A stretch of DNA of 55,093 bases from Nanobdellota archaeon (GCA_039714095.1 JBDLJZ010000001.1:1-55093); one strand, 5' to 3'; positions 8,429-55,093 are shown, counted from the stretch's first letter. Numbers and translations: made by a program. The notes: generated by a model not told the origin, from the letters alone.

Positions 8429-9373
8429 TTACAGAACCTTTACAATCTCTTTTGCAACTCTTTGAATAACTGTAACATTAACACTATTTCCTGCCTGATG
8501 ATATAATTTTGCATCTGCTATTTTTGGAAGTTTCCAACTTTTAGGAAAGCCTTGTAGTCTAAAACATTCAAAAGGTGTTAATTTTCTTATTCCTTTGTGA
8601 TCTAAAATAATTGGGACATTGTGTCCTCCTGAACCCATATTTGCAGTTAGAGTAGGACAAACTTTACTCTTATTTTCTCGCACATATTTTCTCCGCCATT
8701 GATAAACTGTATCTTTGGAGGTGATTTCTTTTTTTAATTCAGGATAGATAAATTTACCTTTATAATAGTATTTTTCGTCTACATTTTTCTCTAAAAAATC
8801 TTTAAAGCTCTTATTGAGTTTTGTAGTCTTGGGGAACTTAAATTTCTTGGCTTTCTTATGATCTAAAAATCCTACAATGATAATTCTTTCTCTATTTTGT
8901 GGAAGATTTCCATGAGTCATTCCATTTAACACTTCAGATTTGACCATATAACCCAAATCTTCCAATGTTTTTTTAATCACCTTAAAGGTTTTTCCGTGAT
9001 CGTGAGTCTTTATATTTTTTACATTTTCCAAGAATACAATTTTTGGTTTTTTCTCTTCTATTATTTCAGCTATCCTAAAAAATAAATTTCCTCTTCCTTT
9101 TTTGTCTTTAAATCCTTGCCTCTGTCCTGCAATAGAAAAAGGTTGACAAGGAAACCCTGCCAATAAAATCTCAAAATTTGGAATATCTTTTATTGGATAC
9201 TTGCAAATATCCGCAATTGTTAATTTAACTCCTTTGTGATTTAAATCAAAAGTATCTTTACAGGATTTTTCAAAATCATTAGAGAAAACTGTTTTAAATC
9301 CTGCTTTTTCAAAACCCAACCTAATGCCCCCAACACCTGCAAATAAATCTATTGCCCTCTTTTTAATCACCAT
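8429..9373 (-). CDS. DNA (cytosine-5)-methyltransferase
   Basis: Motif I DLFAGVGGIRLGF, motif IV GFPCQPFS, motif VI ENVKN, LTPFECFRLQGFP, motif X QAGNSV. Confidence 0.95.
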   Translation of the reverse strand: MVIKKRAIDLFAGVGGIRLGFEKAGFKTVFSNDFEKSCKDTFDLNHKGVKLTIADICKYPIKDIPNFEILLAGFPCQPFSIAGQRQGFKDKKGRGNLFFRIAEIIEEKKPKIVFLENVKNIKTHDHGKTFKVIKKTLEDLGYMVKSEVLNGMTHGNLPQNRERIIIVGFLDHKKAKKFKFPKTTKLNKSFKDFLEKNVDEKYYYKGKFIYPELKKEITSKDTVYQWRRKYVRENKSKVCPTLTANMGSGGHNVPIILDHKGIRKLTPFECFRLQGFPKSWKLPKIADAKLYHQAGNSVNVTVIQRVAKEIVKVL

Positions 9374-9567
9374 ATTACATAAAAATCAGCATTGTTTTTA
9401 TATGTTGCCCATGCTCTTTTTTTAGCTTCAAAAATTCTTAAAATAGTTTTTCTTTTTAACTTTCTTTTCTAGTTTTCTTTCTATCTCTTTCAAGTCATTC
9501 ATTATCTTATCAAATTTATCTTCAACTTCCATTTTTTATTCTCATTAAGATATTTTTATACGAAAAA

Positions 9568-10002: not shown

Positions 10003-10407
10003 ATGCAACAAGTAATCTATCTTAAAGAAAATTCTGATAGTATAAAGAATGCCAAAACAATCTTTGATAATATAAGTAAAATCAAAGTAGATTACGAACA
10101 AGAAAACTTTTTAGTTTTCTTCTTAGATACGAGATTAGAAATAATTGACACAGAGGTTTTATTCAAAGGTGGATTAAACTCTTGTTTGATAGACCCCAAA
10201 ACAATTTTTAGAAAAGCTTTGTTGAAAAATTCAGCTGCAATTATTGTTTCGCATAATCATCCAAGTAGAAATTTAAGCCCATCAAGTGAAGACATAGAAA
10301 GTTTTAACGAATTGAAAAAGATTGGCGAATTATTAGATTTAAGTGTTTTAGATAGTATTATCTTTGATGAAAATAAATATTACTCTCTTTCTGAAAATGA
10401 TAATTAA
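10003..10407 (+). CDS. RadC-like JAB/MPN domain protein
   Basis: IIVSHNHPSRNLSPSSEDI matches the JAMM-like HxHPSG...S.xD signature of RadC/DUF2466. ATG at 10003 is preceded by GGAGAG. The track start at 9997 is a TTG. Confidence 0.8.
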   Translation: MQQVIYLKENSDSIKNAKTIFDNISKIKVDYEQENFLVFFLDTRLEIIDTEVLFKGGLNSCLIDPKTIFRKALLKNSAAIIVSHNHPSRNLSPSSEDIESFNELKKIGELLDLSVLDSIIFDENKYYSLSENDN

Positions 10408-12884: not shown

Positions 12885-13427
12885 ATGGGTGATATAAATC
12901 CACCTCATTTGAAAAAAGAATTTTTTGGAAAGGGAACCTCTGTTGTTAGGAATACAAAAAATCCATATATAAATAGAGATGAAAAGAATAAAGATAAGAA
13001 AAATAAAGATGTCTCTAAAAATGATAATTATTCTATAAGCATACCAATAAAAGTAGCCAAAATTATGGGGCTTAAAAATAAACAAAGATTAGATTTGATG
13101 TATTATCTTGATAAAAAATGTCCCCAAATTATACTTTCTATACCTCCTCTTTCAGATAAAGATAGGATACAAAAAATAAAGGAAAATAAAAAATTTCTAA
13201 AAATGGGAACCTCTTCAGACGAAATAGAATTATCAAGAGAAATATATAAGTTAGAAAAAGATATAGAAAGCAATAAAGATACACAAAAAATTATATTGTC
13301 TCATCCAGAATCTTCTGATAAAAAAGAGGCAATTAAATATTTAGAAGGAAGCGAAGAAGAATTAACAGAATTACTTAAAGAATTAAAAAATGATTTAAAT
13401 GAAATTAAAGAGAAATCTTCTTCTTAA
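12885..13427 (+). CDS. AbrB/SpoVT-like DNA-binding protein with a coiled-coil tail
   Basis: ISIPIKVAKIMGLKNKQRLDLMY resembles the AbrB-type swapped-hairpin motif. The remainder is charged and coiled-coil-like. Confidence 0.4.
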   Translation: MGDINPPHLKKEFFGKGTSVVRNTKNPYINRDEKNKDKKNKDVSKNDNYSISIPIKVAKIMGLKNKQRLDLMYYLDKKCPQIILSIPPLSDKDRIQKIKENKKFLKMGTSSDEIELSREIYKLEKDIESNKDTQKIILSHPESSDKKEAIKYLEGSEEELTELLKELKNDLNEIKEKSSS

Positions 13428-14577
13428 TTAATTCCAAAATTTCTGGATCCTTAATTAGTCCATCCATAACATTATCTGTTAAACTTCTTTCTGTTTCTGC
13501 TTCAATAATCTTTTCAGCTTCCTCTTTATCTAAAACTAATCCACAGATTTTACAAAATCGGTTTGTTGCTTCATTGGTAGTATTACACTTTATGCATTTC
13601 TTAGGTTGCATAACTGGAAGGTTTGATTCTTTCTTTATCTCTACGCCGTTAGCCCTTAGCACAGCTTCATCTGTTGTTTTTCCACACATGGAAATATATA
13701 CTCCACACATACGGCTACTTTGCCCCCAACCAAGATATTGCTTCATACATGCTTCACTCATAGTAGAAGCAAGCAGCGTAGCTCTTGAATGTCTAAGTAA
13801 ATGCAAATGAACTCTTTTTTTTATTCCTGCTTTTTTCGCAGCTGTTTTTAATACTCCTGAGATTCTTGTATAACTCATTTGTTGCCCATCACTTTTTATC
13901 CAAAGAGGAGAGTTTGAATTATCATTATCAGAATGTTGATTTATCCAGTTTTGCAAATAAGGAGAACTCCATACAACTAGAATTTTTCTCATGCCAGTCT
14001 TCCCATCCACAGTTAATCTTGCACCATATTCTTCAAATGAAGTATGTTTTATTTGCATTGACCCGATTTCTCCTGCCCTACAACCTGATTCGGCTAATGT
14101 AGCAATCAAAGCTTTGTCTCTTGGATTATTACATTTTTGAATTATCTTTTTTATTTCTTCTTCAGTTAAAAGTTCTTCAGGAAGCTTACTTTTACTTCTA
14201 GGAATATTAATTGAAATCCATCTAACTCTTTCTGGATAAACCCCTTTCTCATCTATATCTTCTATAAAACGATAAAGTTTTCTTACAATTACTTTAAATC
14301 CTTTTTTTGTTTCTTCTGCTAATCCTGTTTGGTTAAGTTCTCCAATAACAGCCCTGATGTCGTTTTTTGTAGCCTCTTCAAAAGGCTTTTTCAGCATTTT
14401 AGAATACTTTACTAATTCTCCAATACATCTTTCAATTCTTGGAACTCCAATTCCTTCACTCAATAAATAATTCTTAAATTTTAATATAGTCTCTTTATTT
14501 TCTTCGAGAATTTCTTTAGATTTCTTAATATTTTTAAGTGTTCTATCAAGTCTTCTTTTGTAATTATGTATATCCAT
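13405..14577 (-). CDS. tyrosine recombinase / integrase with a C-terminal zinc ribbon
   Basis: ESGCRAGE (Arg box), HLHLLRHSRAT (HxxR), GWGQSSRMCGVYI (catalytic Tyr region), CIKCNTTNEATNRFCKICG zinc ribbon. Sits 60 nt from the tRNA-Asp 3' end. Confidence 0.9.
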   Translation of the reverse strand: MDIHNYKRRLDRTLKNIKKSKEILEENKETILKFKNYLLSEGIGVPRIERCIGELVKYSKMLKKPFEEATKNDIRAVIGELNQTGLAEETKKGFKVIVRKLYRFIEDIDEKGVYPERVRWISINIPRSKSKLPEELLTEEEIKKIIQKCNNPRDKALIATLAESGCRAGEIGSMQIKHTSFEEYGARLTVDGKTGMRKILVVWSSPYLQNWINQHSDNDNSNSPLWIKSDGQQMSYTRISGVLKTAAKKAGIKKRVHLHLLRHSRATLLASTMSEACMKQYLGWGQSSRMCGVYISMCGKTTDEAVLRANGVEIKKESNLPVMQPKKCIKCNTTNEATNRFCKICGLVLDKEEAEKIIEAETERSLTDNVMDGLIKDPEILELIKKKISL

Positions 14578-14637: not shown

Positions 14638-14794
14638 CGCCCCAACCGGGAGTTGAACCCGGGTTTCTTGCGTTCTGCACATTTTCACCTTCTCTCGCGT
14701 TAGCGAGCATATTTAGGAAGGTTGACGGTCAAGGAAACCTATGTTTCCTTACCTGCACGACAGGCAAGTGTCTTAGCCGTTGGACAATTGAGGC
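14638..14794 (-). tRNA. tRNA-Asp(GUC) with an 85-nt intron at the canonical 37/38 position
   Basis: Hand-folded. Acceptor GCCUCAA/UUGGGGC, discriminator G. D arm GUCC..AGAC with GG in the loop. Anticodon stem CUUGC/GCAAG, loop CU-GUC-G|intron|C. T arm CCGGG-UUCAACU-CCCGG. Exons 14794-14758 and 14672-14638. The BHB has a central helix CUGU/GCAG flanked by 3-nt bulges. Confidence 0.85.
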
Positions 14795-15395: not shown

Positions 15396-16659
15396 TTTTC
15401 TTCTTACTATTCATATAAGGTTGTAAAACTTTCGGAATATTTATGCTTCCGTCTTTATTTTGATTATTCTCTAAAATAGCAACCATAATTCTAGAAGTTG
15501 CAATTACTGTATTATTTAATGTGTGCGCAAAATATCTCTTCCCTTTATTTTCAATCTTAATATTCAAACGTCTTGCTTGCGACTCTTCCATGTTTGTTAA
15601 GGAAGTAATTTCTTTGTATTCATTTTGACGAGGACTCCAAACTTCTAAATCACACGACTTTGCTTTTAAATTTGCCAAATCTCCTGAGCAACATTCCAAA
15701 ACCCTAAAAGGTAAATCTAATTTCTTAAATAAATCAACAGAATATCTAAGCATTTTATCATACCATTTATATGATTCTTTTGGCTCGCAAATAACAATCA
15801 TTTCTTGCTTGTTAAATTGGTGCGTTCTAAAAATTCCTTTCTCATCAATTCCATGTGAACCAATTTCTTTTCTAAAACACATAGAATAACCTGTCTGCAA
15901 AATAGGCAAATCTTTTTCAGAAAAAGTTTTATTCATAAATTGTCCAATTAAAGTATGCTCTGAGGTTGCAATTAAATACAAATCCCCTCCTTCAATCTTA
16001 TAAGACATTTCATCAATTTCTTCATTAGAATAAACTCCTCGCAAAATATCACCACGAATCATCAACGGAGGCTCAACATATAAAAAATTTTTTTCAACCA
16101 TAAAATCTCTTGCAAAATTAATTAACGCCACATTCAGTAATGCTAAATCTCCTTTAAGATAATAAAATCCTTTTCCAGAAACTTTAGCAGAATCATCAAA
16201 ATCTAAAATTCCTAATTTCTCTCCTAATTCAACATGACTCAAAACTTTGAAATCAAATTTTTTTATTTTACCAAATTTTTTAATCTCAACATTCTCAGAA
16301 TCGTCTTTTCCAATAGGAACTGACTCATGCATAATGTTTGGGATTTTAAACATAATTTCTTTAATTTTCCTCTCTAACTTTTTTCTTTTCTCTTGAACCT
16401 TTTCAATCTTAGTAGGAATTTCCTTTGCACTTTTTAATTCCTTTTCAACCTTTTTTCCAGATTTCTTCAATTCACTAATTTTCTTAGAAATTTTATTTCT
16501 ATCACCTCTCAAGTTGTCTTCATCAAATTTCAACTTCCTCCATTCCTCATCCAGCTTTTTAACTTCATCAACCAGTTTCAATTTATCATTCTGAAATTTT
16601 TTCTTAATATTTTCCTTAACTAAATCAGGATTTTTACGAATCAAATTAATATCAATCAT
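15370..16659 (-). CDS. serS: seryl-tRNA synthetase
   Basis: N-terminal coiled-coil arm starting MIDINLIRKNPDLVKENI. Class II motif 2 FRKEIGSHGIDEKGIFRTHQFNKQE. C-terminal GSINIPKVLQPYM. Confidence 0.95.
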   Translation of the reverse strand: MIDINLIRKNPDLVKENIKKKFQNDKLKLVDEVKKLDEEWRKLKFDEDNLRGDRNKISKKISELKKSGKKVEKELKSAKEIPTKIEKVQEKRKKLERKIKEIMFKIPNIMHESVPIGKDDSENVEIKKFGKIKKFDFKVLSHVELGEKLGILDFDDSAKVSGKGFYYLKGDLALLNVALINFARDFMVEKNFLYVEPPLMIRGDILRGVYSNEEIDEMSYKIEGGDLYLIATSEHTLIGQFMNKTFSEKDLPILQTGYSMCFRKEIGSHGIDEKGIFRTHQFNKQEMIVICEPKESYKWYDKMLRYSVDLFKKLDLPFRVLECCSGDLANLKAKSCDLEVWSPRQNEYKEITSLTNMEESQARRLNIKIENKGKRYFAHTLNNTVIATSRIMVAILENNQNKDGSINIPKVLQPYMNSKKKIEKKKQTR

Positions 16660-16971
16660 AAATTAATTTTACAAAACCAACTATTTAAAAATTTTGGAAA
16701 AATAATCCTGAAAGGCGAGTGTAACAATAATTACGAGTATAAAGATTTTTTAAAAAAAATCTGCAATAAATTAATTTTACAAAACCAACTATTTAAAAAT
16801 TTTGGAAAATTAATCTTAGAAAGGTGAGCATCTTCTGAAATTTCTAATAAATGAGCGAAAAAATTAAAAGTGAATTTAAAGAAGATTTCACGGAGTGCGA
16901 ATAGAGCGTTTCAATAATTACGAGTATAAAGATTTTTTAAAAAAAATCTGCAATAAATTAATTTTACAAAA
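16660..16971. repeat. duplicated intergenic promoter-region repeats
   Basis: A 42-nt unit aaattaattttacaaaaccaactatttaaaaattttggaaaa occurs at 16660-16701 and 16768-16809. A 60-nt unit caataattacgagtataaagattttttaaaaaaaatctgcaataaattaattttacaaaa occurs at 16725-16784 and 16912-16971. Each copy of the 60-nt unit contains the palindrome AGATTTTTTAAAAAAAATCT. Confidence 0.85.
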
Positions 16972-17028
16972 ATACTCTATTTAAATTTAATCAAAAAAAT
17001 ATATAAACTTATTTTAACAATTTAATTT

Positions 17029-36738: not shown

Positions 36739-36884
36739 TCCACCCACCCAGATTCGAACTGGGGATCTCCCGGGTACTGCTATGTAACCGAGCTGACTTT
36801 TAGGGTTTCATTTAATTTCCAAATGGAATATCCGCCTTAGTAATAAACTACAGCCAGGCGCTCTAACCGCTGAGCTATGGGTGG
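36739..36884 (-). tRNA. tRNA-Tyr(GUA) with a 73-nt intron at position 37/38
   Basis: Hand-folded. Acceptor CCACCCA/UGGGUGG with the archaeal/eukaryal Tyr identity pair C1-G72, discriminator A. D arm GCUC-AGCGGUUA-GAGC. Anticodon stem CCUGG/CCGGG, loop CU-GUA-G|intron|C. T arm CCCAG-UUCGAAU-CUGGG. Exons 36884-36848 and 36774-36739. Confidence 0.85.
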
Positions 36885-47304: not shown

Positions 47305-47521
47305 TTCTAAAACTGAATATAAATTTAACTTGTACAATAAATTATTAAACATTATTCTTCTCTTATTTCTCCATGAATTTTGAATTATTTTTTTACAAGA
47401 TTGAGGCACTTTGTTTCTGTAGCATGGTCTACTATGTAAGGAAGGGAATAACAAAGAAGATTGTAAAAAAGAAACAAAATTCATCCAAAACCTTTTTTAA
47501 CTAACTAAATCTCTTTTTTTT

Positions 47522-49262: not shown

Positions 49263-49370
49263 AATAAATTAATTTTTGAAGAATATATAAATATTTGTTT
49301 CCTATTATTTTTTCACAACAAACTTTATAACTCTTCTTTTTCTAAAATTTCAATGGTGATGATTAACTTT

Positions 49371-49460
49371 ATGCTATATCCGTTGGATTGCACAAAAAGA
49401 AGTTGTCCTTCAATGAAGAGTGGAAGGTTACACGAAGGAAATCAGAAGGTATCCTCCTCT
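49371..49460 (+). promoter_or_regulatory. unclassified structured RNA leader, copy B (first of tandem pair)
   Basis: Helix GCUAUAUC(49373-49380)/GAAGUUGU(49399-49406) has 6 of 8 pairs. It encloses the 18-nt loop CGUUGGAUUGCACAAAAA. Stem CCUUC(49407-11)/GAAGG(49423-27). GAAGG box plus UAUCCUCC at the 3' end. Confidence 0.6.
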
Positions 49461-49546
49461 ATGCGACGTCAATCGGATTGCACAAAAAGATGTTGCCCTT
49501 CCATGCTTAGAGGAAGGAGCACGAGGAAAACAGAGGGTTTCCTCGT
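49461..49546 (+). promoter_or_regulatory. unclassified structured RNA leader, copy C (directly upstream of the Cas4-like nuclease ATG)
   Basis: Helix GCGACGUC(49463-49470)/GAUGUUGC(49489-49496) encloses the loop AAUCGGAUUGCACAAAAA. Stem CCUUCC(49497-502)/GGAAGG(49512-517). GAGGG-UUU-CCUC hairpin ends 2 nt before the ATG at 49547. Confidence 0.65.
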
Positions 49547-50470
49547 ATGGTGATGATTTATTCGCATTCTCGTTTAAGTACCTTTGAACAATGTCCTTTC
49601 AAATTTAAATTAAGATATATTGATAATGTTAAGCCTGAAATAGAAACAAGCATTGAAGCACATCTTGGAAGTGTAGTTCATAATACATTAGAATGGCTTT
49701 ACATTGAAGTACAAAAAAGAAATCTTCCAATAATAGAAGAAGTAATAAAATATTATTCTGAAAACTGGGAACAAATTTACAAACCAGGAACGATTATAGT
49801 TCGTAAAAATTTAACAACTAAAGATTATTTCAATAAGGGAGTTAAATTTCTTCTTGATTATTATATGAAACATCAACCATTTCAAGATGGAACTTTAGAG
49901 CTTGAAAAAAAAATCCTTCTTGATTTAGACGGAACCGGCAAATATAAAATTCAGGGATTTATTGATAGATTAATTTTCAATAAAGAAACAAATGAATACG
50001 AAGTTCATGATTATAAAACAGCAAATTCTTTGCCAACAGAAGAAAAAGTAGCTACTGATAGACAACTTGCTTTGTACTCAATTGCAATAAAAGAAATATA
50101 TGGACAGCATTATAATGTTTTATTGACTTGGCATTATCTTGCACATAACATAAAAATCTGCTCACGACGAACAACAAATCAATTAGAACAATTAAAAAAA
50201 GATATAATAAATTTAATTGATAAAATAGAAGTAACAACAGAATTTCCTGCACAAAAATCTGTTCTTTGTGGTTGGTGTGAATTTAAATCAATGTGTCCGC
50301 GATTTGGAGGAGTTGTTGGAGAACGACAACACACGTTGGTGTATACTGACTCACTTCGTTCCCAGCACGAGAACCTGCAAGCAGGCCCCGATAAATTTTC
50401 AAAGAAAATTTCTACTGAGGGCAAAGGAATTAGTGAATATCCAATTTTGGGAAAGTATATTAGATATTAA
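49547..50470 (+). CDS. Cas4/RecB-like PD-(D/E)xK nuclease with Fe-S cysteines and an unusual C-terminal extension
   Basis: YSHSRLSTFEQCPFKFKLRYI N-terminus. GFIDRL...YEVHDYKT (D...ExK variant D-x-K). C-terminal CGWCEFKSMC. About 50 extra residues follow, encoded by a locally GC-rich segment. Confidence 0.8.
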   Translation: MVMIYSHSRLSTFEQCPFKFKLRYIDNVKPEIETSIEAHLGSVVHNTLEWLYIEVQKRNLPIIEEVIKYYSENWEQIYKPGTIIVRKNLTTKDYFNKGVKFLLDYYMKHQPFQDGTLELEKKILLDLDGTGKYKIQGFIDRLIFNKETNEYEVHDYKTANSLPTEEKVATDRQLALYSIAIKEIYGQHYNVLLTWHYLAHNIKICSRRTTNQLEQLKKDIINLIDKIEVTTEFPAQKSVLCGWCEFKSMCPRFGGVVGERQHTLVYTDSLRSQHENLQAGPDKFSKKISTEGKGISEYPILGKYIRY

Positions 50471-51799: not shown

Positions 51800-52606
51800 T
51801 TAAAGATTATCTAATGGTGATTTAATGTTTTGTAGTTCTTTGTTTGATACTTGTGTGTATATTTGAGTTGTAGATAAATCACTATGTCCAAGAAGTTTTT
51901 GTATATGTCTTATATCTGTTCCAGATTCTAAAAGATGTGTTGCAAAAGAGTGCCGAAGCATATGGGGAGTTAATTTAATTCCAACTTTTTCCCCTAATTT
52001 GTCTAAAACTTTTTGAATAGATTTTTTTGTGTATTTTCCATTTCTGCCTTCAAAAATATACTCAGTTGAAAAATTATAATTACTATAATATTTTAATAAA
52101 TCTAATTTTAAATTTTCAGAAATTATAGTTATTCTATCTTTTTTACCTTTACCTTTTTTTACATAAATTGTATTTCTCTCAAAATCAATATCTTTTCTTT
52201 TCAAATCAACTAATTCTTGAAGTCGAAGACCAGAAGAATAAAGAATTTTAACAATAACTTTATGTTTAATGTTTTCGCAAGATTCAATTATTTCTTTTAT
52301 TTTCCCTTTTGAAATTATTTTTGGAAGAGATTTTTCTTTCTTTTTTATTGGAACTTCTTCAAAATTAAATGGTTGATGTAAAATTTCTCTAAAGAAAAAA
52401 CTAAGAGATGCATACTGAAGTCTCATTGAGTTAATAGATAAGTTTAGTGTTAACAAATAACACTTAACAGAATCTTTTGATGGATTAAGTCTACTTTTCT
52501 CTAAAAAAGACAAATATCTAGAAACATTATAAGTATAGGATTTAATTGTTTGCTTAGAATATCCCTTTAAAATACAATAATTTGTTAATTCTTTAATATA
52601 ATCCAT
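51800..52606 (-). CDS. xerA: XerA-like tyrosine recombinase
   Basis: SGLRLQELVDLKRKDIDF...VKKGKGKKDR, TPHMLRHSFATHLLESGTDIRHIQKLLGHSDLSTTQIYTQV. Close to archaeal XerA over the catalytic region. It lacks the extra segment typical of integron integrases. Confidence 0.85.
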   Translation of the reverse strand: MDYIKELTNYCILKGYSKQTIKSYTYNVSRYLSFLEKSRLNPSKDSVKCYLLTLNLSINSMRLQYASLSFFFREILHQPFNFEEVPIKKKEKSLPKIISKGKIKEIIESCENIKHKVIVKILYSSGLRLQELVDLKRKDIDFERNTIYVKKGKGKKDRITIISENLKLDLLKYYSNYNFSTEYIFEGRNGKYTKKSIQKVLDKLGEKVGIKLTPHMLRHSFATHLLESGTDIRHIQKLLGHSDLSTTQIYTQVSNKELQNIKSPLDNL

Positions 52607-52707
52607 ATTAGAACTTTTAAATTAAAATATATTTAAATCTATGTTAAAACTTTTCAGTTTAATATTAAATCTACTTTTCAAGTAGACTTAATACATGTTA
52701 TATGACA

Positions 52708-52813
52708 TATTTTGGTGGCAATTTGAATTTTAAAATGAAAAAACTTTTATTTCCCTTTATTTTATTAAATTTTGCTTCACTATCGTTACGCAAAATGGGG
52801 GCGAAAAAATTTT
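52708..52813. repeat. upstream arm of a long inverted repeat flanking the aldehyde dehydrogenase gene
   Basis: Three perfect 17-nt blocks: tattttggtggcaattt (52708-24), aaaaacttttatttccc (52739-55), gggggcgaaaaaatttt (52797-813). Each recurs as its reverse complement downstream of the gene. Confidence 0.85.
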
Positions 52814-52838
52814 AAATACTAATGTAATTACTATTACT

Positions 52839-54215
52839 ATGGCAAAATTAATCTCAACAAATCCCGCAAAAAACTACGAAGTAGTCGGCGAAATAGAAAT
52901 CTCAACAGACAAAGATATTTCTGAAAAAGTATATCGCGCTAGTCAGACAAAAACCATTTGGAAAGAAATGGGGATAAAAAAAAGAATTGAACTACTAAAA
53001 CCCATATATCAAGACTTTCAAGATAACGCTGACGAAATTGCCATGTTAGCAACAAAAGAGACTGGTAGAGCAATTACGGAAAGTAGGGCAATTGTTAGTG
53101 GTCATATAAATAAAATCAAATGGTTTTTAGATAATGCAGAATCAGCACTTTCTGATGAAATAACGCATGAAGATGATGGATCAATTCATAAAATTATGTA
53201 TGAACCTATTGGTACAGCAGCGATAATAACTCCTTGGAATCATCCGTTCGGAATGTTTGTTTGGGGAGTAATTCCCAATCTTCTCGCTGGGAACACAGTC
53301 GTTTTTAAAATTTCAGAAGAGTGTCCGCTGGTTGGAAAGTTAATTGAAGACATTATGCTTTCCCACAGTCTTCCTGAAGGAGTTTTTTCCGAGGTTTACG
53401 GAGATGGAGAAGTTGGCTGGAAGTTAGCACAAGAAAATATTGACTTGATCTGGTTTACTGGAAGCACCAAAGTCGGACAACAATTATTCAAATTGGCAGG
53501 AGAAAAATTTATCAAGGCAATTTTAGAACTAGGTGGTTCCAATCCATGTATTGTTTTCGAGGATGTAGATATTGAAAAAATTGTTGATAAAATTTACGCT
53601 AAAAGATTTAAGCTTTGTGGGCAAACATGCGACGCCCTAAAAAGATTAATAGTTCATGAATCAATCGCTGGTAAATTAATTGAGGCTTTGAAGCAAAAAA
53701 TTGAATCGCAGAAAGTTGGTAATTCTGAGAACCCAAAAACTGACGTGGGAAGTTTAGTTGCTAAAAGACAACTTGATTTATTGGAAAGTCAGATGAAAGA
53801 CGCGCTTGATAAAGGAGCTAAAATTATTACTGGAGGAAGTTCGCCTAAAGATGTGGACGGTGCTTTCTACTTACCTACCTTGCTTACAAATATAAACAAA
53901 GAAATGCAAGTTTGGAACGAGGAAGTTTTTGGTCCAGTATTGCCAGTAATTACTTTTAAAACAGAAGCAGAAGCCTTATCGCTTGCCAATGATACAATTT
54001 ATGGGCTAGGTTCAATTATTTTTACCAAAGATATTGAACGAGCCAAGAAAATTGCTTCAAAATTAAATTCTGGAACAGTTGAGATTAATAGTGCGATTCA
54101 CTGGGTATCCTGCAATCCATTCGGAGGTTATAAAAAATCAGGAATGGGTAGAGAGCATGGCGTTATTGGATTTAGAGAACTTTGCCAAATCAAAGTTGTT
54201 TCAATGGAAAAATAA
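52839..54215 (+). CDS. NAD(P)-dependent aldehyde dehydrogenase
   Basis: ITPWNHP, FTGSTKVG, ELGGSNP, catalytic Cys in CGQTCDA, EEVFGPV, GGYKKSGMGRE. Confidence 0.95.
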   Translation: MAKLISTNPAKNYEVVGEIEISTDKDISEKVYRASQTKTIWKEMGIKKRIELLKPIYQDFQDNADEIAMLATKETGRAITESRAIVSGHINKIKWFLDNAESALSDEITHEDDGSIHKIMYEPIGTAAIITPWNHPFGMFVWGVIPNLLAGNTVVFKISEECPLVGKLIEDIMLSHSLPEGVFSEVYGDGEVGWKLAQENIDLIWFTGSTKVGQQLFKLAGEKFIKAILELGGSNPCIVFEDVDIEKIVDKIYAKRFKLCGQTCDALKRLIVHESIAGKLIEALKQKIESQKVGNSENPKTDVGSLVAKRQLDLLESQMKDALDKGAKIITGGSSPKDVDGAFYLPTLLTNINKEMQVWNEEVFGPVLPVITFKTEAEALSLANDTIYGLGSIIFTKDIERAKKIASKLNSGTVEINSAIHWVSCNPFGGYKKSGMGREHGVIGFRELCQIKVVSMEK

Positions 54216-54218
54216 GGA

Positions 54219-54242
54219 GTCGCTATCGCGACAAAATTTTTT
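54219..54242 (+). terminator. hairpin plus T-run directly after the ALDH stop
   Basis: GUCGC-UAUC-GCGAC at 54219-54232, followed by AAAAUUUUUU. Confidence 0.4.
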
Positions 54243-54321
54243 CGCCCCCTAATAATGTGTTCGCTATCGCTCACGGGAAATAAAAGTTTTTAGACAATAA
54301 TGAGAAATTGCCACCAAAATA
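54233..54321. repeat. downstream arm of the inverted repeat flanking the aldehyde dehydrogenase gene
   Basis: Reverse complements of the three 17-nt blocks lie at 54233-49, 54275-91 and 54305-21, in mirror order. Confidence 0.85.
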
Positions 54322-54377
54322 CGCTAAAGCCACGCTGCGCTCTCACTTCACTTCGTTCCGTTCGGGTCATATAACAA

Positions 54378-54772
54378 GGGATAAAAGGAAAATTGCTCGG
54401 CTCGCAATTTTCCCAAATTTTCTTCGCTACGCTACGAAAACTTCTTTTATCCCTGATGTTAGTTTCAATTTTTGAGAATGCCTACAAGTTAGAGTAAAGA
54501 CAAAGAAATAGGAAATAATATTTTTTCTCCCACCCAATAGGGGAGACGCGCGCAGTTTTCGAATTCTCGAAAACTAGATAGCAAAAACTTCGTTTTTGGA
54601 TTTATATGGGGATTTCCTTAGTCCTTCGGACAGATAGTCTCGGCTTCGCCTCGCAGAAAACTTCTTTTATTCGACCAACAAAAACCACAAAGAAATTAAA
54701 ATTTCTTCTAACAAAGGATAAAGGGCTTCGCCCAAATTTTTCCGATTTTATATTTGGTAGGCTGTCGGAAAA
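54378..54772. repeat. cluster of degenerate, hairpin-forming repeat units in a locally GC-richer noncoding stretch
   Basis: GGGAUAAAA(54378-86)/UUUUAUCCC(54445-53) closes a unit containing a 10-bp hairpin GGAAAAUUGC/GCAAUUUUCC. Related units occur near 54597-54672 and 54714-54810. Further hairpins lie at 54526-46, 54554-75, 54582-98, 54621-31, 54642-50, 54723-33 and 54738-72. Confidence 0.75.
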
Positions 54773-54824
54773 CGATTTGAAAACAAAAAGCTTTTTATAC
54801 TATCTCTTGATTATATATGTTAAG

Positions 54825-55093
54825 ATGAAAACAAAAATAATCTTGCCAATTTTTTTCTTAATGATTTTATCCTTATCTATTTTTGTTTCTGCTGAAAATT
54901 CATCAATTTGTTCTGACAGTGATGGGGGGTTAAATTATGATGTAAAAGGTGAAGCTAATAAAGAAGGTTTCGGAAGCACAGAAGATTTTTGTGTAAATGA
55001 TATTAAATTATCTGAAGCTCTTTGTAATAACGATGGCAATCCTGCAAATGCTCAATATGATTGTCCAAATGGTTGTTCTAATGGAGCCTGTAT
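54825..55093 (+). CDS. secreted Cys-rich protein, 5' part only (runs off the window)
   Basis: Hand translation gives MKTKIILPIFFLMILSLSIFVSAENSSICSDSDGGLNYDVKGEANKEGFGSTEDFCVNDIKLSEALCNNDGNPANAQYDCPNGCSNGAC. It has a signal peptide and regularly spaced Cys. The frame is open to the window end. Confidence 0.6.
   Translation, partial: MKTKIILPIFFLMILSLSIFVSAENSSICSDSDGGLNYDVKGEANKEGFGSTEDFCVNDIKLSEALCNNDGNPANAQYDCPNGCSNGAC

Follow-up and report, generated by a model that had tools for sequence, protein, structure and literature searches.

The hairpin-packed stretch at positions 54322-54824 is best explained as a cassette recombination site followed by a cassette leader, in other words as one junction of an integron-like gene-cassette array; we put the probability of this reading at about 0.75. 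That a XerA-type enzyme is the catalyst of this array, and folded single strands its substrate, seems to us a slightly better than even bet, both ideas being drawn from sequence. The window, by which we mean the whole stretch of DNA analysed (55,093 nucleotides), is an entire contig (C1) of a 757-kb genome (G000; 59 contigs, 89.6% complete). Judging from its archaeal rRNA genes and from the closest relatives of the recombinase, which are found in MAGs labelled Woesearchaeota, Pacearchaeota and Iainarchaeum, the host is a DPANN archaeon.

In the mechanism that we envision, the segment 54368-54465 would be a folded attC-like site closing a cassette that carries an aldehyde dehydrogenase (ALDH) gene. 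The recombinase encoded at 51800-52606 would most likely cut and join at a conserved AACA/TGTT core, and cassettes would be excised as circles and inserted at a docking site (52687-52699) beside the recombinase gene. Recognition would be by shape and not by sequence. The shape in question would comprise an outer box stem in which five to seven variable bases are paired, a one-sided bulge of 2-3 nt, an inner arm stem and a branched top. The features on which this scheme is built are collected in Table 1.

Table 1. Features of the array end on contig C1 and matches of the spacer to contig C15
Feature	Positions	Strand	Details
XerA-type tyrosine recombinase gene	51800-52606	-	268 aa; transcribed away from the array
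attI-like docking site	52670-52699	+	17-nt hairpin 52670-52686; conserved 13-nt core ending ATGTT 52687-52699
Cassette 1	52697-54457	+	ALDH gene 52839-54215; Pfam Aldedh, 4.4e-133
attC-like site 1	54368-54465	+	the 76-nt unit of the first-pass annotation
Site 1, outer parts			5' box 54368-54375; A 54376; bulge GAT 54455-54457; 3' box 54458-54465
Site 1, inner parts			left arm 54377-54387; variable hairpin 54387-54413; conserved CCCAAATTTT 54412-54421; right arm 54444-54454
Closing arms of the 76-78-nt unit	54377-54387 / 54444-54454		11 bp, 100% complementary
Inner 10-bp stem	54387-54396 / 54404-54413		
Start of cassette 2	54456-54557	+	leader module common to the cassette following C15 171
Structured non-coding head of cassette 2	54458-54824	+	
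Double-hairpin module, copy 1	54554-54598	+	9-bp palindrome, AGATAG, 7-bp hairpin
9-bp palindrome	54554-54562 / 54567-54575		
Double-hairpin module, copy 2	54621-54657	+	4-bp hairpin, AGATAG, imperfect hairpin
'Inside-out' attC-like hairpin	54661-54725	+	right-arm-like 54664-54672 pairs with left-arm-like 54716-54724
Partial site	54723-54772	+	short hairpin 54723-54733; CCCAAATTTT 54731-54740; 8-bp hairpin 54737-54745 / 54765-54772
Other hairpins	54582-54598, 54621-54631, 54642-54650, 54723-54733, 54737-54772		read from the sequence
Cassette-2 gene start	54792-55093	+	TATA-like box 54792-54799; ATG 54825; continues into C15
Match to C15 1372-1308	54367-54431		95% identity
Match to C15 171-70	54456-54557		92% identity; homology begins at ATGTT
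Match to C15 5014-4968	54503-54549		89% identity
Match to C15 14422-14347	54657-54730		81% identity

The array and the recombinase beside it

The last 99 bases of C1 overlap exactly, in reverse orientation, with bases 17306-17208 of contig C15, and the start of C15 overlaps exactly with the end of contig C20. These overlaps give the order of the locus as C1(+), C15(-), C20(-), with the array extending from 52.7 kb on C1 across C15 into C20. Nine attC-like sites of 93-162 nt lie along it, all on one strand and in direct orientation, each between unrelated genes. The genes of the array (NYN, CYTH, Mrr-like and NUDIX genes, a glycosyltransferase/radical-SAM/methyltransferase cluster and small ORFs) bear no relation to one another. 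The spacers that separate them measure 300-700 bp and show a common succession of modules on the array strand: a stop codon, AT-rich hairpins with a GC-rich word, the 93-162-nt site, a double-hairpin leader, frequently a site-like hairpin in permuted form, a TATA-like box and a start codon. The AT-rich hairpins 3' of the stop codons have T-runs. Long non-coding heads and tails, together with the promoters that cassettes apparently carry on their own, would account for the length of the spacers; those of bacterial integrons are far shorter, which counts against the comparison.

The first-pass annotation had called for a genome-wide search for the words recurring in 54322-54824. Pieces of this region do recur in the genome, always within the array and on the same strand (Table 1), and profiles of the junction motif and of half-sites matched nothing in the genome outside the end of C1, C15 and C20. 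Two observations concern the limits of the locus. On the 1.6-kb contig C59, bases 1121-1244 are a 124-nt inverted copy (92.7%) of the leader segment C15 15708-15830 and may represent an unplaced array fragment. Past the last site, at about 12880 on C20 (array strand), a box within a small ORF complements the 3' box of that site at five variable bases; it may be a decayed terminal site, or a product of chance.

The gene of cassette 2, which follows the stretch under study, likely has its true start at the ATG at 54825, and the TATA-like box upstream of it looks like a promoter. Its product has a signal peptide and weak CarboxypepD_reg-like matches.

The recombinase scores as an archaeal XerA: it passes the XerA equivalog model (NCBIfam NF040815, recomb_XerA_Arch; 234.9 bits, cut-off 220) and is collinear with Pyrococcus abyssi XerA (4a8e). 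With the integron integrase model TIGR02249 it reaches 196.8, below the cut-off of 265, and the match falls into two stretches, as does that to PRK15417. In an alignment with Vibrio IntI4 (2a3v), residues 10-166 and 195-267 correspond to residues 12-173 and 245-319, so that about 43 residues of the integrase-specific insert are missing between residues 166 and 195. By profile match and by alignment alike, the IntI-specific additional domain around patch III is absent from the protein. No other protein of the 89.6%-complete genome exceeds the XerA cut-off. Since it is the only XerA of the genome, the enzyme may be a chromosome-dimer resolvase that happens to adjoin the array.

The linkage between recombinase and array is conserved. 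The recombinase gene adjoins array matches, divergently, in four genera (genomes G000, G003, G022 and G021). In a further genome (G018) recombinase homologues and array matches lie on different contigs, and in another (G009) a recombinase homologue was not found. Half-site matches occur in 5 of 29 recombinase loci of relatives, all five upstream of the gene and on the opposite strand; the remaining 24 loci, which count against the array reading, gave no match to half-site profiles that are narrow, having been built from G000's own sites. At 12 of these 29 loci the contig extends no further than 900 bases upstream of the gene, as against one locus on the downstream side, which fits assemblies that break at variable arrays. 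The array reading would thus explain the hypervariable, assembly-breaking regions in DPANN genomes. The docking hairpin and its core are likewise found upstream of the recombinase gene at loci L031, L032, L033 and, in part, L030, and the sequences diverge directly after ATGTT, where the L030 and L034 contigs stop. An nhmmer search with the single docking-site sequence as query gave no matches in 37 loci.

Boxes, folds and the predicted crossover

In the first-pass annotation, 54322-54824 was portrayed as a noncoding stretch, richer in G+C than the genome, with at least nine strong hairpins and several recurring words. This picture is accurate. The hairpins lie where they had been placed, to within a base or two. 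The G+C content is 0.36-0.41 as compared to 0.285 for C1. The sole reading frames look spurious, one being a TTG-initiated frame of 55 aa (54308-54475) and the other running from 54606 in frame into the next gene. Perfect stems of at least 7 bp with loops of 3-8 nt number six, versus a mean of 0.55 in dinucleotide shuffles, and this count is reached by 1 of 300 shuffles and by 2 of 104 other 503-nt windows of C1. The minimum free energy of the 611-nt spacer is unexceptional (z of -1.57 on the plus strand and -1.66 on the minus strand, with 20 shuffles each). Among the words, a 15-mer is found at both 54436 and 54656 and a 9-mer at both 54642 and 54724; a 10-mer is repeated at 54412 and 54731, and the 22-mers at 54367 and 54704 are 82% alike. 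The proposal that three or so diverged copies of one structured unit are present was right as to the repeated pieces, but there is just one complete site (54368-54465), together with a partial copy that is permuted, or 'inside-out' (54661-54741), and the double-hairpin module in duplicate. The exclusion of a CRISPR array stands, as the repeat table contains no periodic constant repeat. CRISPR, C/D-box RNA and retron readings were dropped, their defining motifs being absent from the sequence.

The left half of a site consists of a 5' box ending in AAC, an A, the left arm and variable hairpins with the conserved CCCAAATTT; the right half consists of the right arm, GAT or AAT, and a 3' box beginning with GTT. 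Folded as single-stranded DNA, site 1 forms a box stem, a 2-nt bulge, an arm stem and a branched top, with dG values of -18.6 for the top strand and -21.5 for the bottom strand (z of -5.9 and -6.7, respectively). For seven of the nine sites both strands give z values of -4.5 to -7.8. Folding is weaker in sites 4 and 7 (z of -2.4 to -3.9), which counts against the array reading. In an alignment of 13 sites (eight from G000 and five from G003, a member of another genus; site 9, on C20, was left out), AACA is invariant and is paired with TGTT in 12 cases, and three arm pairs are changed on both sides. These changes are of the compensatory kind for which a comparison with relatives had been recommended. 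Also to be counted against the array reading is one 3' box, among the array sites, that is devoid of its G. The sites are mosaics of halves, as illustrated by site 1 and the site at C15 1371, which are alike in their 5' half only.

A crossover at the 3' box predicts that each cassette begins with bases complementary to the 5' box of its own site. The ten consecutive boxes of the array (those of the docking site and of the nine sites, with five variable positions each) largely bear this out. The numbers of complementary variable positions at the successive junctions are 5, 5, 5, 5, 1, 5, 5, 2 and 2; complementarity is therefore perfect at six of nine junctions, a result equalled in 8 of 100,000 permutations, as compared to 3 of 81 pairings of non-adjacent boxes. 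The junctions that are not complementary (4 to 5, 7 to 8 and 8 to 9) count against the rule; a single site type present in near-identical copies is involved here, along with a stretch of 7 kb that holds several genes. The bases from 52697, 90 bases from the recombinase start codon, complement the 5' box at 54368, which identifies the ALDH gene as cassette 1. In G003, six complementary variable bases are found between docking site and site 1, between sites 1 and 2, and between sites 4 and 5; the rows of the regex finder used for these junctions were also read by eye, since the regex gave many AT-rich false positives in relatives.

Some cassettes have mirror-image non-coding ends. In cassette 1 these lie at about 52707-52755 and 54275-54325 (inverted match 54275-54321 / 52755-52708). 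Matched pairs of ends have a mean score of 29.4, versus 20.2 (sd 4.0) for unmatched ones, with scores of 46 for the ALDH cassette and 34 for cassette 4. The signal is clear only in these two, and in cassettes 2 and 6 by way of a shared module, and is not a general property of the array.

Homology breaks off at the predicted crossover within the genome, between genomes and in other metagenomes. The within-genome case is the match of 54456-54557 to C15 (Table 1). A case from another genome is that of the first cassette at L033, directly after the docking site; the recombinase of this genome is 74% identical to that of G000. The leader of this cassette matches that of the third cassette of G000 (93.9% over 214 nt, from the ATGTT at C15 15851 onward), as does its trailer (95.8% over 120 nt), and the two genes in between are both different from the payload found in G000 (region compared, C15 15851-14537). 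The same ends flanking different genes might offer a handle on how cassettes are born.

For the metagenomes, contigs from public runs were compared over 52600-55093, small-share runs (X3, X4, X6, X7 and X9-X24) being left out. A landfill contig of 2686 nt (X5) aligns to 52695-54344 with 129 differences, its sequence upstream of 52695 being unlike that of C1. In a marine contig from another study (X2) the match begins at 52697, and in a groundwater contig (X8) at 52701, again preceded by unlike sequence. Contigs from three other studies thus have a left breakpoint no more than 4 bases from the predicted crossover, and the ALDH cassette therefore exists elsewhere in other contexts. Against this picture, the X2 contig continues past the ALDH cassette into the sequence of a different site (loose end at 54349). 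The summed depth in these runs, 80-400 over 54280-54620 versus 2-31 over the ALDH gene, shows that site and leader modules are multi-copy in those metagenomes. No excision or reordering joints were seen in the public-run contigs over 52600-55093, a result that is uninformative since contigs drop rare forms.

Conserved leaders of the cassettes

Between site 1 and the start codon of the following gene lie modules that are found again in relatives. In the double-hairpin module, two hairpins flank an A-rich hexamer in 14 of 15 instances from eight genomes, as judged by per-sequence folds. The stem sequences differ, with at least six different first stems among the instances; near-identical copies of copy 2 occur in G028, G047 and G003. 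RNAalifold found no pairs in a MAFFT alignment of the 15 instances, which can be ascribed to stems of unequal length that fall out of register.

The second module is a hairpin whose stem pairs a right-arm-like with a left-arm-like segment and whose loop contains two AAC-type cores and an inner hairpin (54690-54707). We read it, on account of this arrangement, as an attC-like site turned inside out. In ten homologues from nine genomes, 96.7% of cells are paired and five of nine pairs are changed on both sides; the covariation score is 0.368, versus 0.158 in shuffles (0 of 500 reach the observed value) and at most 0.156 in slid controls. The third module (54723-54772) has its parts in the order seen in the 5' half of a full site, the right arm and the 3' box being absent. 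Genome G035, in which no clear module was seen, was left out of module alignments A1 and A3, and the L031 instance out of A3.

The modules keep the orientation of the array even though the payload genes of two cassettes are on the opposite strand, and this leads us to view them as cassette structure and not as gene leaders. We read them as structure-conserved parts of a cassette 'chassis'. One could guess at a role as accessory binding sites, as secondary recombination sites or as insulators between cassettes.

With one C15 spacer as query and a threshold of E <=0.001, matches were obtained in 26 of 36 genomes of the family and in 8 of 24 genomes that represent other families of its order. Short matches are numerous among them, and in the strongest the identity across genera is 87-96%. 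No DNA match to this spacer came from G001, a 77%-complete genome of the same genus, which counts against the array reading. The site family was also encountered upstream of a divergent XerA-like gene on two contigs with unexpected labels: L039 (at about 8690-9380), attributed to the CPR bacterium Candidatus Andersenbacteria (G+C 0.44), and L040 (at about 10040-10200), from an uncultured Pseudomonadales MAG (G+C 0.36). Each has a box complementarity of 9 nt. Either these contigs were mis-binned or the cassette system occurs in both domains; with correct binning, archaea and bacteria would draw on one pool of cassettes.

Other readings, known systems and neighbouring features

The same array could be operated by classical duplex recombination of the Xer/dif type. 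The junctions formed by right arm and 3' box would then be double-stranded dif-like sites, and cassettes would pile up at a chromosomal dif beside xerA in the manner of Xer-exploiting elements, with folded strands unneeded. The status of the recombinase as the genome's sole protein to pass the XerA equivalog model favours this idea, as does the resemblance of the docking site to a half-site made of right arm and 3' box; in archaeal dif, a 6-nt spacer separates two XerA-binding sites (PMC3646895). However, the boxes vary in sequence and yet remain complementary, and the arm stems have undergone compensatory changes, both of which point to recognition of pairing and not of sequence. Moreover, all sites are in direct orientation and the cassettes carry no replication or mobility genes. 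We consider duplex recombination an unlikely explanation, though the most credible of the three weighed here.

Less plausible still is a scenario in which the hairpins act mainly as RNA: they would serve an island of accessory genes as common untranslated modules (5' and 3'), as terminators or as small RNAs, and ordinary homologous recombination between conserved spacers would shuffle the modules. For most genes the modules are on the gene strand; AT-rich hairpins with T-runs lie past the stop codons, the stems covary and a few pairs on the array strand are of the G-U type, all of which would suit an RNA. The cluster of small structured RNAs that was among the candidates of the first-pass annotation finds no support as the main explanation, however. 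No family of Rfam 15 matches the spacer or C15 at the gathering score, the best E-value in a permissive scan of 54150-54900 is 4, and the key pairings span 1.4-7 kb across genes and whole cassettes, which is unlike an RNA gene. The array orientation of modules next to opposite-strand payloads and the confinement of homology breakpoints to one 5-base core argue in the same direction. A second candidate from that source, REP/MITE-like palindromic repeats selfishly accumulated in one intergenic-rich region, we regard as highly improbable. The genome does contain other G+C-rich hairpin repeat families (978 non-self blastn matches in all), and module copies are multi-copy in other metagenomes. Yet the site family is confined to one array, on one strand and once per gene boundary; the terminal boxes differ between units, whereas an end recognised by a transposase would be conserved; and the linkage to the recombinase is conserved. 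It is the third candidate, recombination sites for the nearby recombinase, that is supported by box complementarity, recombinase linkage, homology breakpoints and the docking site.

What defines an integron is an integrase whose special domain reads folded attC hairpins. Canonical attC sites conform to a RYYYAAC / GTTRRRY consensus and have a symmetric unpaired central spacer and extrahelical bases. Set against this consensus, the present sites keep AAC and GTT and do not keep the purine/pyrimidine pattern. They also differ in having a paired AACA/TGTT core, a one-sided bulge of 2-3 nt in place of the symmetric spacer, and the conserved CCCAAATTT in their top. The recombinase differs from an integrase in being without the IntI-specific insert and in scoring as an archaeal XerA, and the cassettes differ in their long conserved non-coding heads and tails with double, inside-out and AT-rich hairpins. 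There are also similarities to integrons (PMC9668308). In both, a tyrosine recombinase gene points away from the docking site next to it and from an array whose cassettes, mostly with a single gene each, are all on one strand. Every cassette is closed by an imperfect palindrome that has inner arms, a top that varies and two outer boxes, one ending in AAC and the other starting with GTT. The cassette's own first bases are complementary to the 5' box, and restriction-type, secreted and unknown proteins are among the payloads. Archaeal integrons and integrase-less attC clusters are already known (Ghaly et al. 2022, PMC9668308), and the archaeal integrons reported so far follow the integrase-domain rule (PMC9668308). 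We found no description of XerA-linked cassette arrays in the accessible part of the literature, a review of archaeal tyrosine recombinases included; the archaeal attC clusters in the supplements of PMC9668308 may include such arrays.

Two further systems can be compared. The repeats of Vibrio cholerae and other homogeneous chromosomal attC sites are about 120 nt or more in length, with a branched top and within-array similarity. The present array shares with them the long branched-top sites, the high similarity within the array and the large number of cassettes whose function is obscure. It differs in that theirs require a bona fide IntI and are not known to have the conserved leader and trailer modules seen here. 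The other system is the resolution of chromosome dimers by Xer at dif (for archaeal XerA, PMC3646895 and PMC8371274), together with the elements that exploit it. In bacteria these elements include phages and plasmid dif modules, and one phage presents its Xer site in a folded single-stranded genome. What is common to this system and to ours is the enzyme family and the location of the site next to the recombinase gene. The difference is that here many directly oriented sites, with boxes that are variable but paired, bound small non-replicative cassettes, and none of the sequences was recognised as a dif.

It is tempting to speculate that the cell's own XerA-type recombinase, devoid of the attC-reading domain, runs a full integron-like gene capture on a conserved non-coding chassis. 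We advance this broader idea tentatively and would sooner bet against it than for it. If it were true, shape-reading cassette capture would not need the integrase-specific domain, and the system would be a living model for the origin of integron integrases from Xer recombinases.

Several other features of contig C1 deserve mention. Two segments on the minus strand, 36739-36884 and 14638-14794 (146 and 157 nt), match the Rfam tRNA model over its full 71 positions. ARAGORN, which reports no tRNA in the window, finds neither; long introns or inserted repeats in archaeal tRNA genes are the probable explanation. The one at 14638-14794 adjoins a gene for a 390-aa tyrosine recombinase (13405-14577). 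A G+C-rich element of 100 nt (50326-50425) lies within the 3' end of a PD-(D/E)XK nuclease frame and shares 96% identity with C20 9039-9137; its copies on C2, C3, C4 and C5 are 77-89% identical to it. It is a repeat family distinct from the array sites. Finally, 16647-16985, 47323-47499 and 49367-49562 belong to multi-copy repeat families, AT-rich and intergenic or in tandem within a frame, with copies on many contigs.
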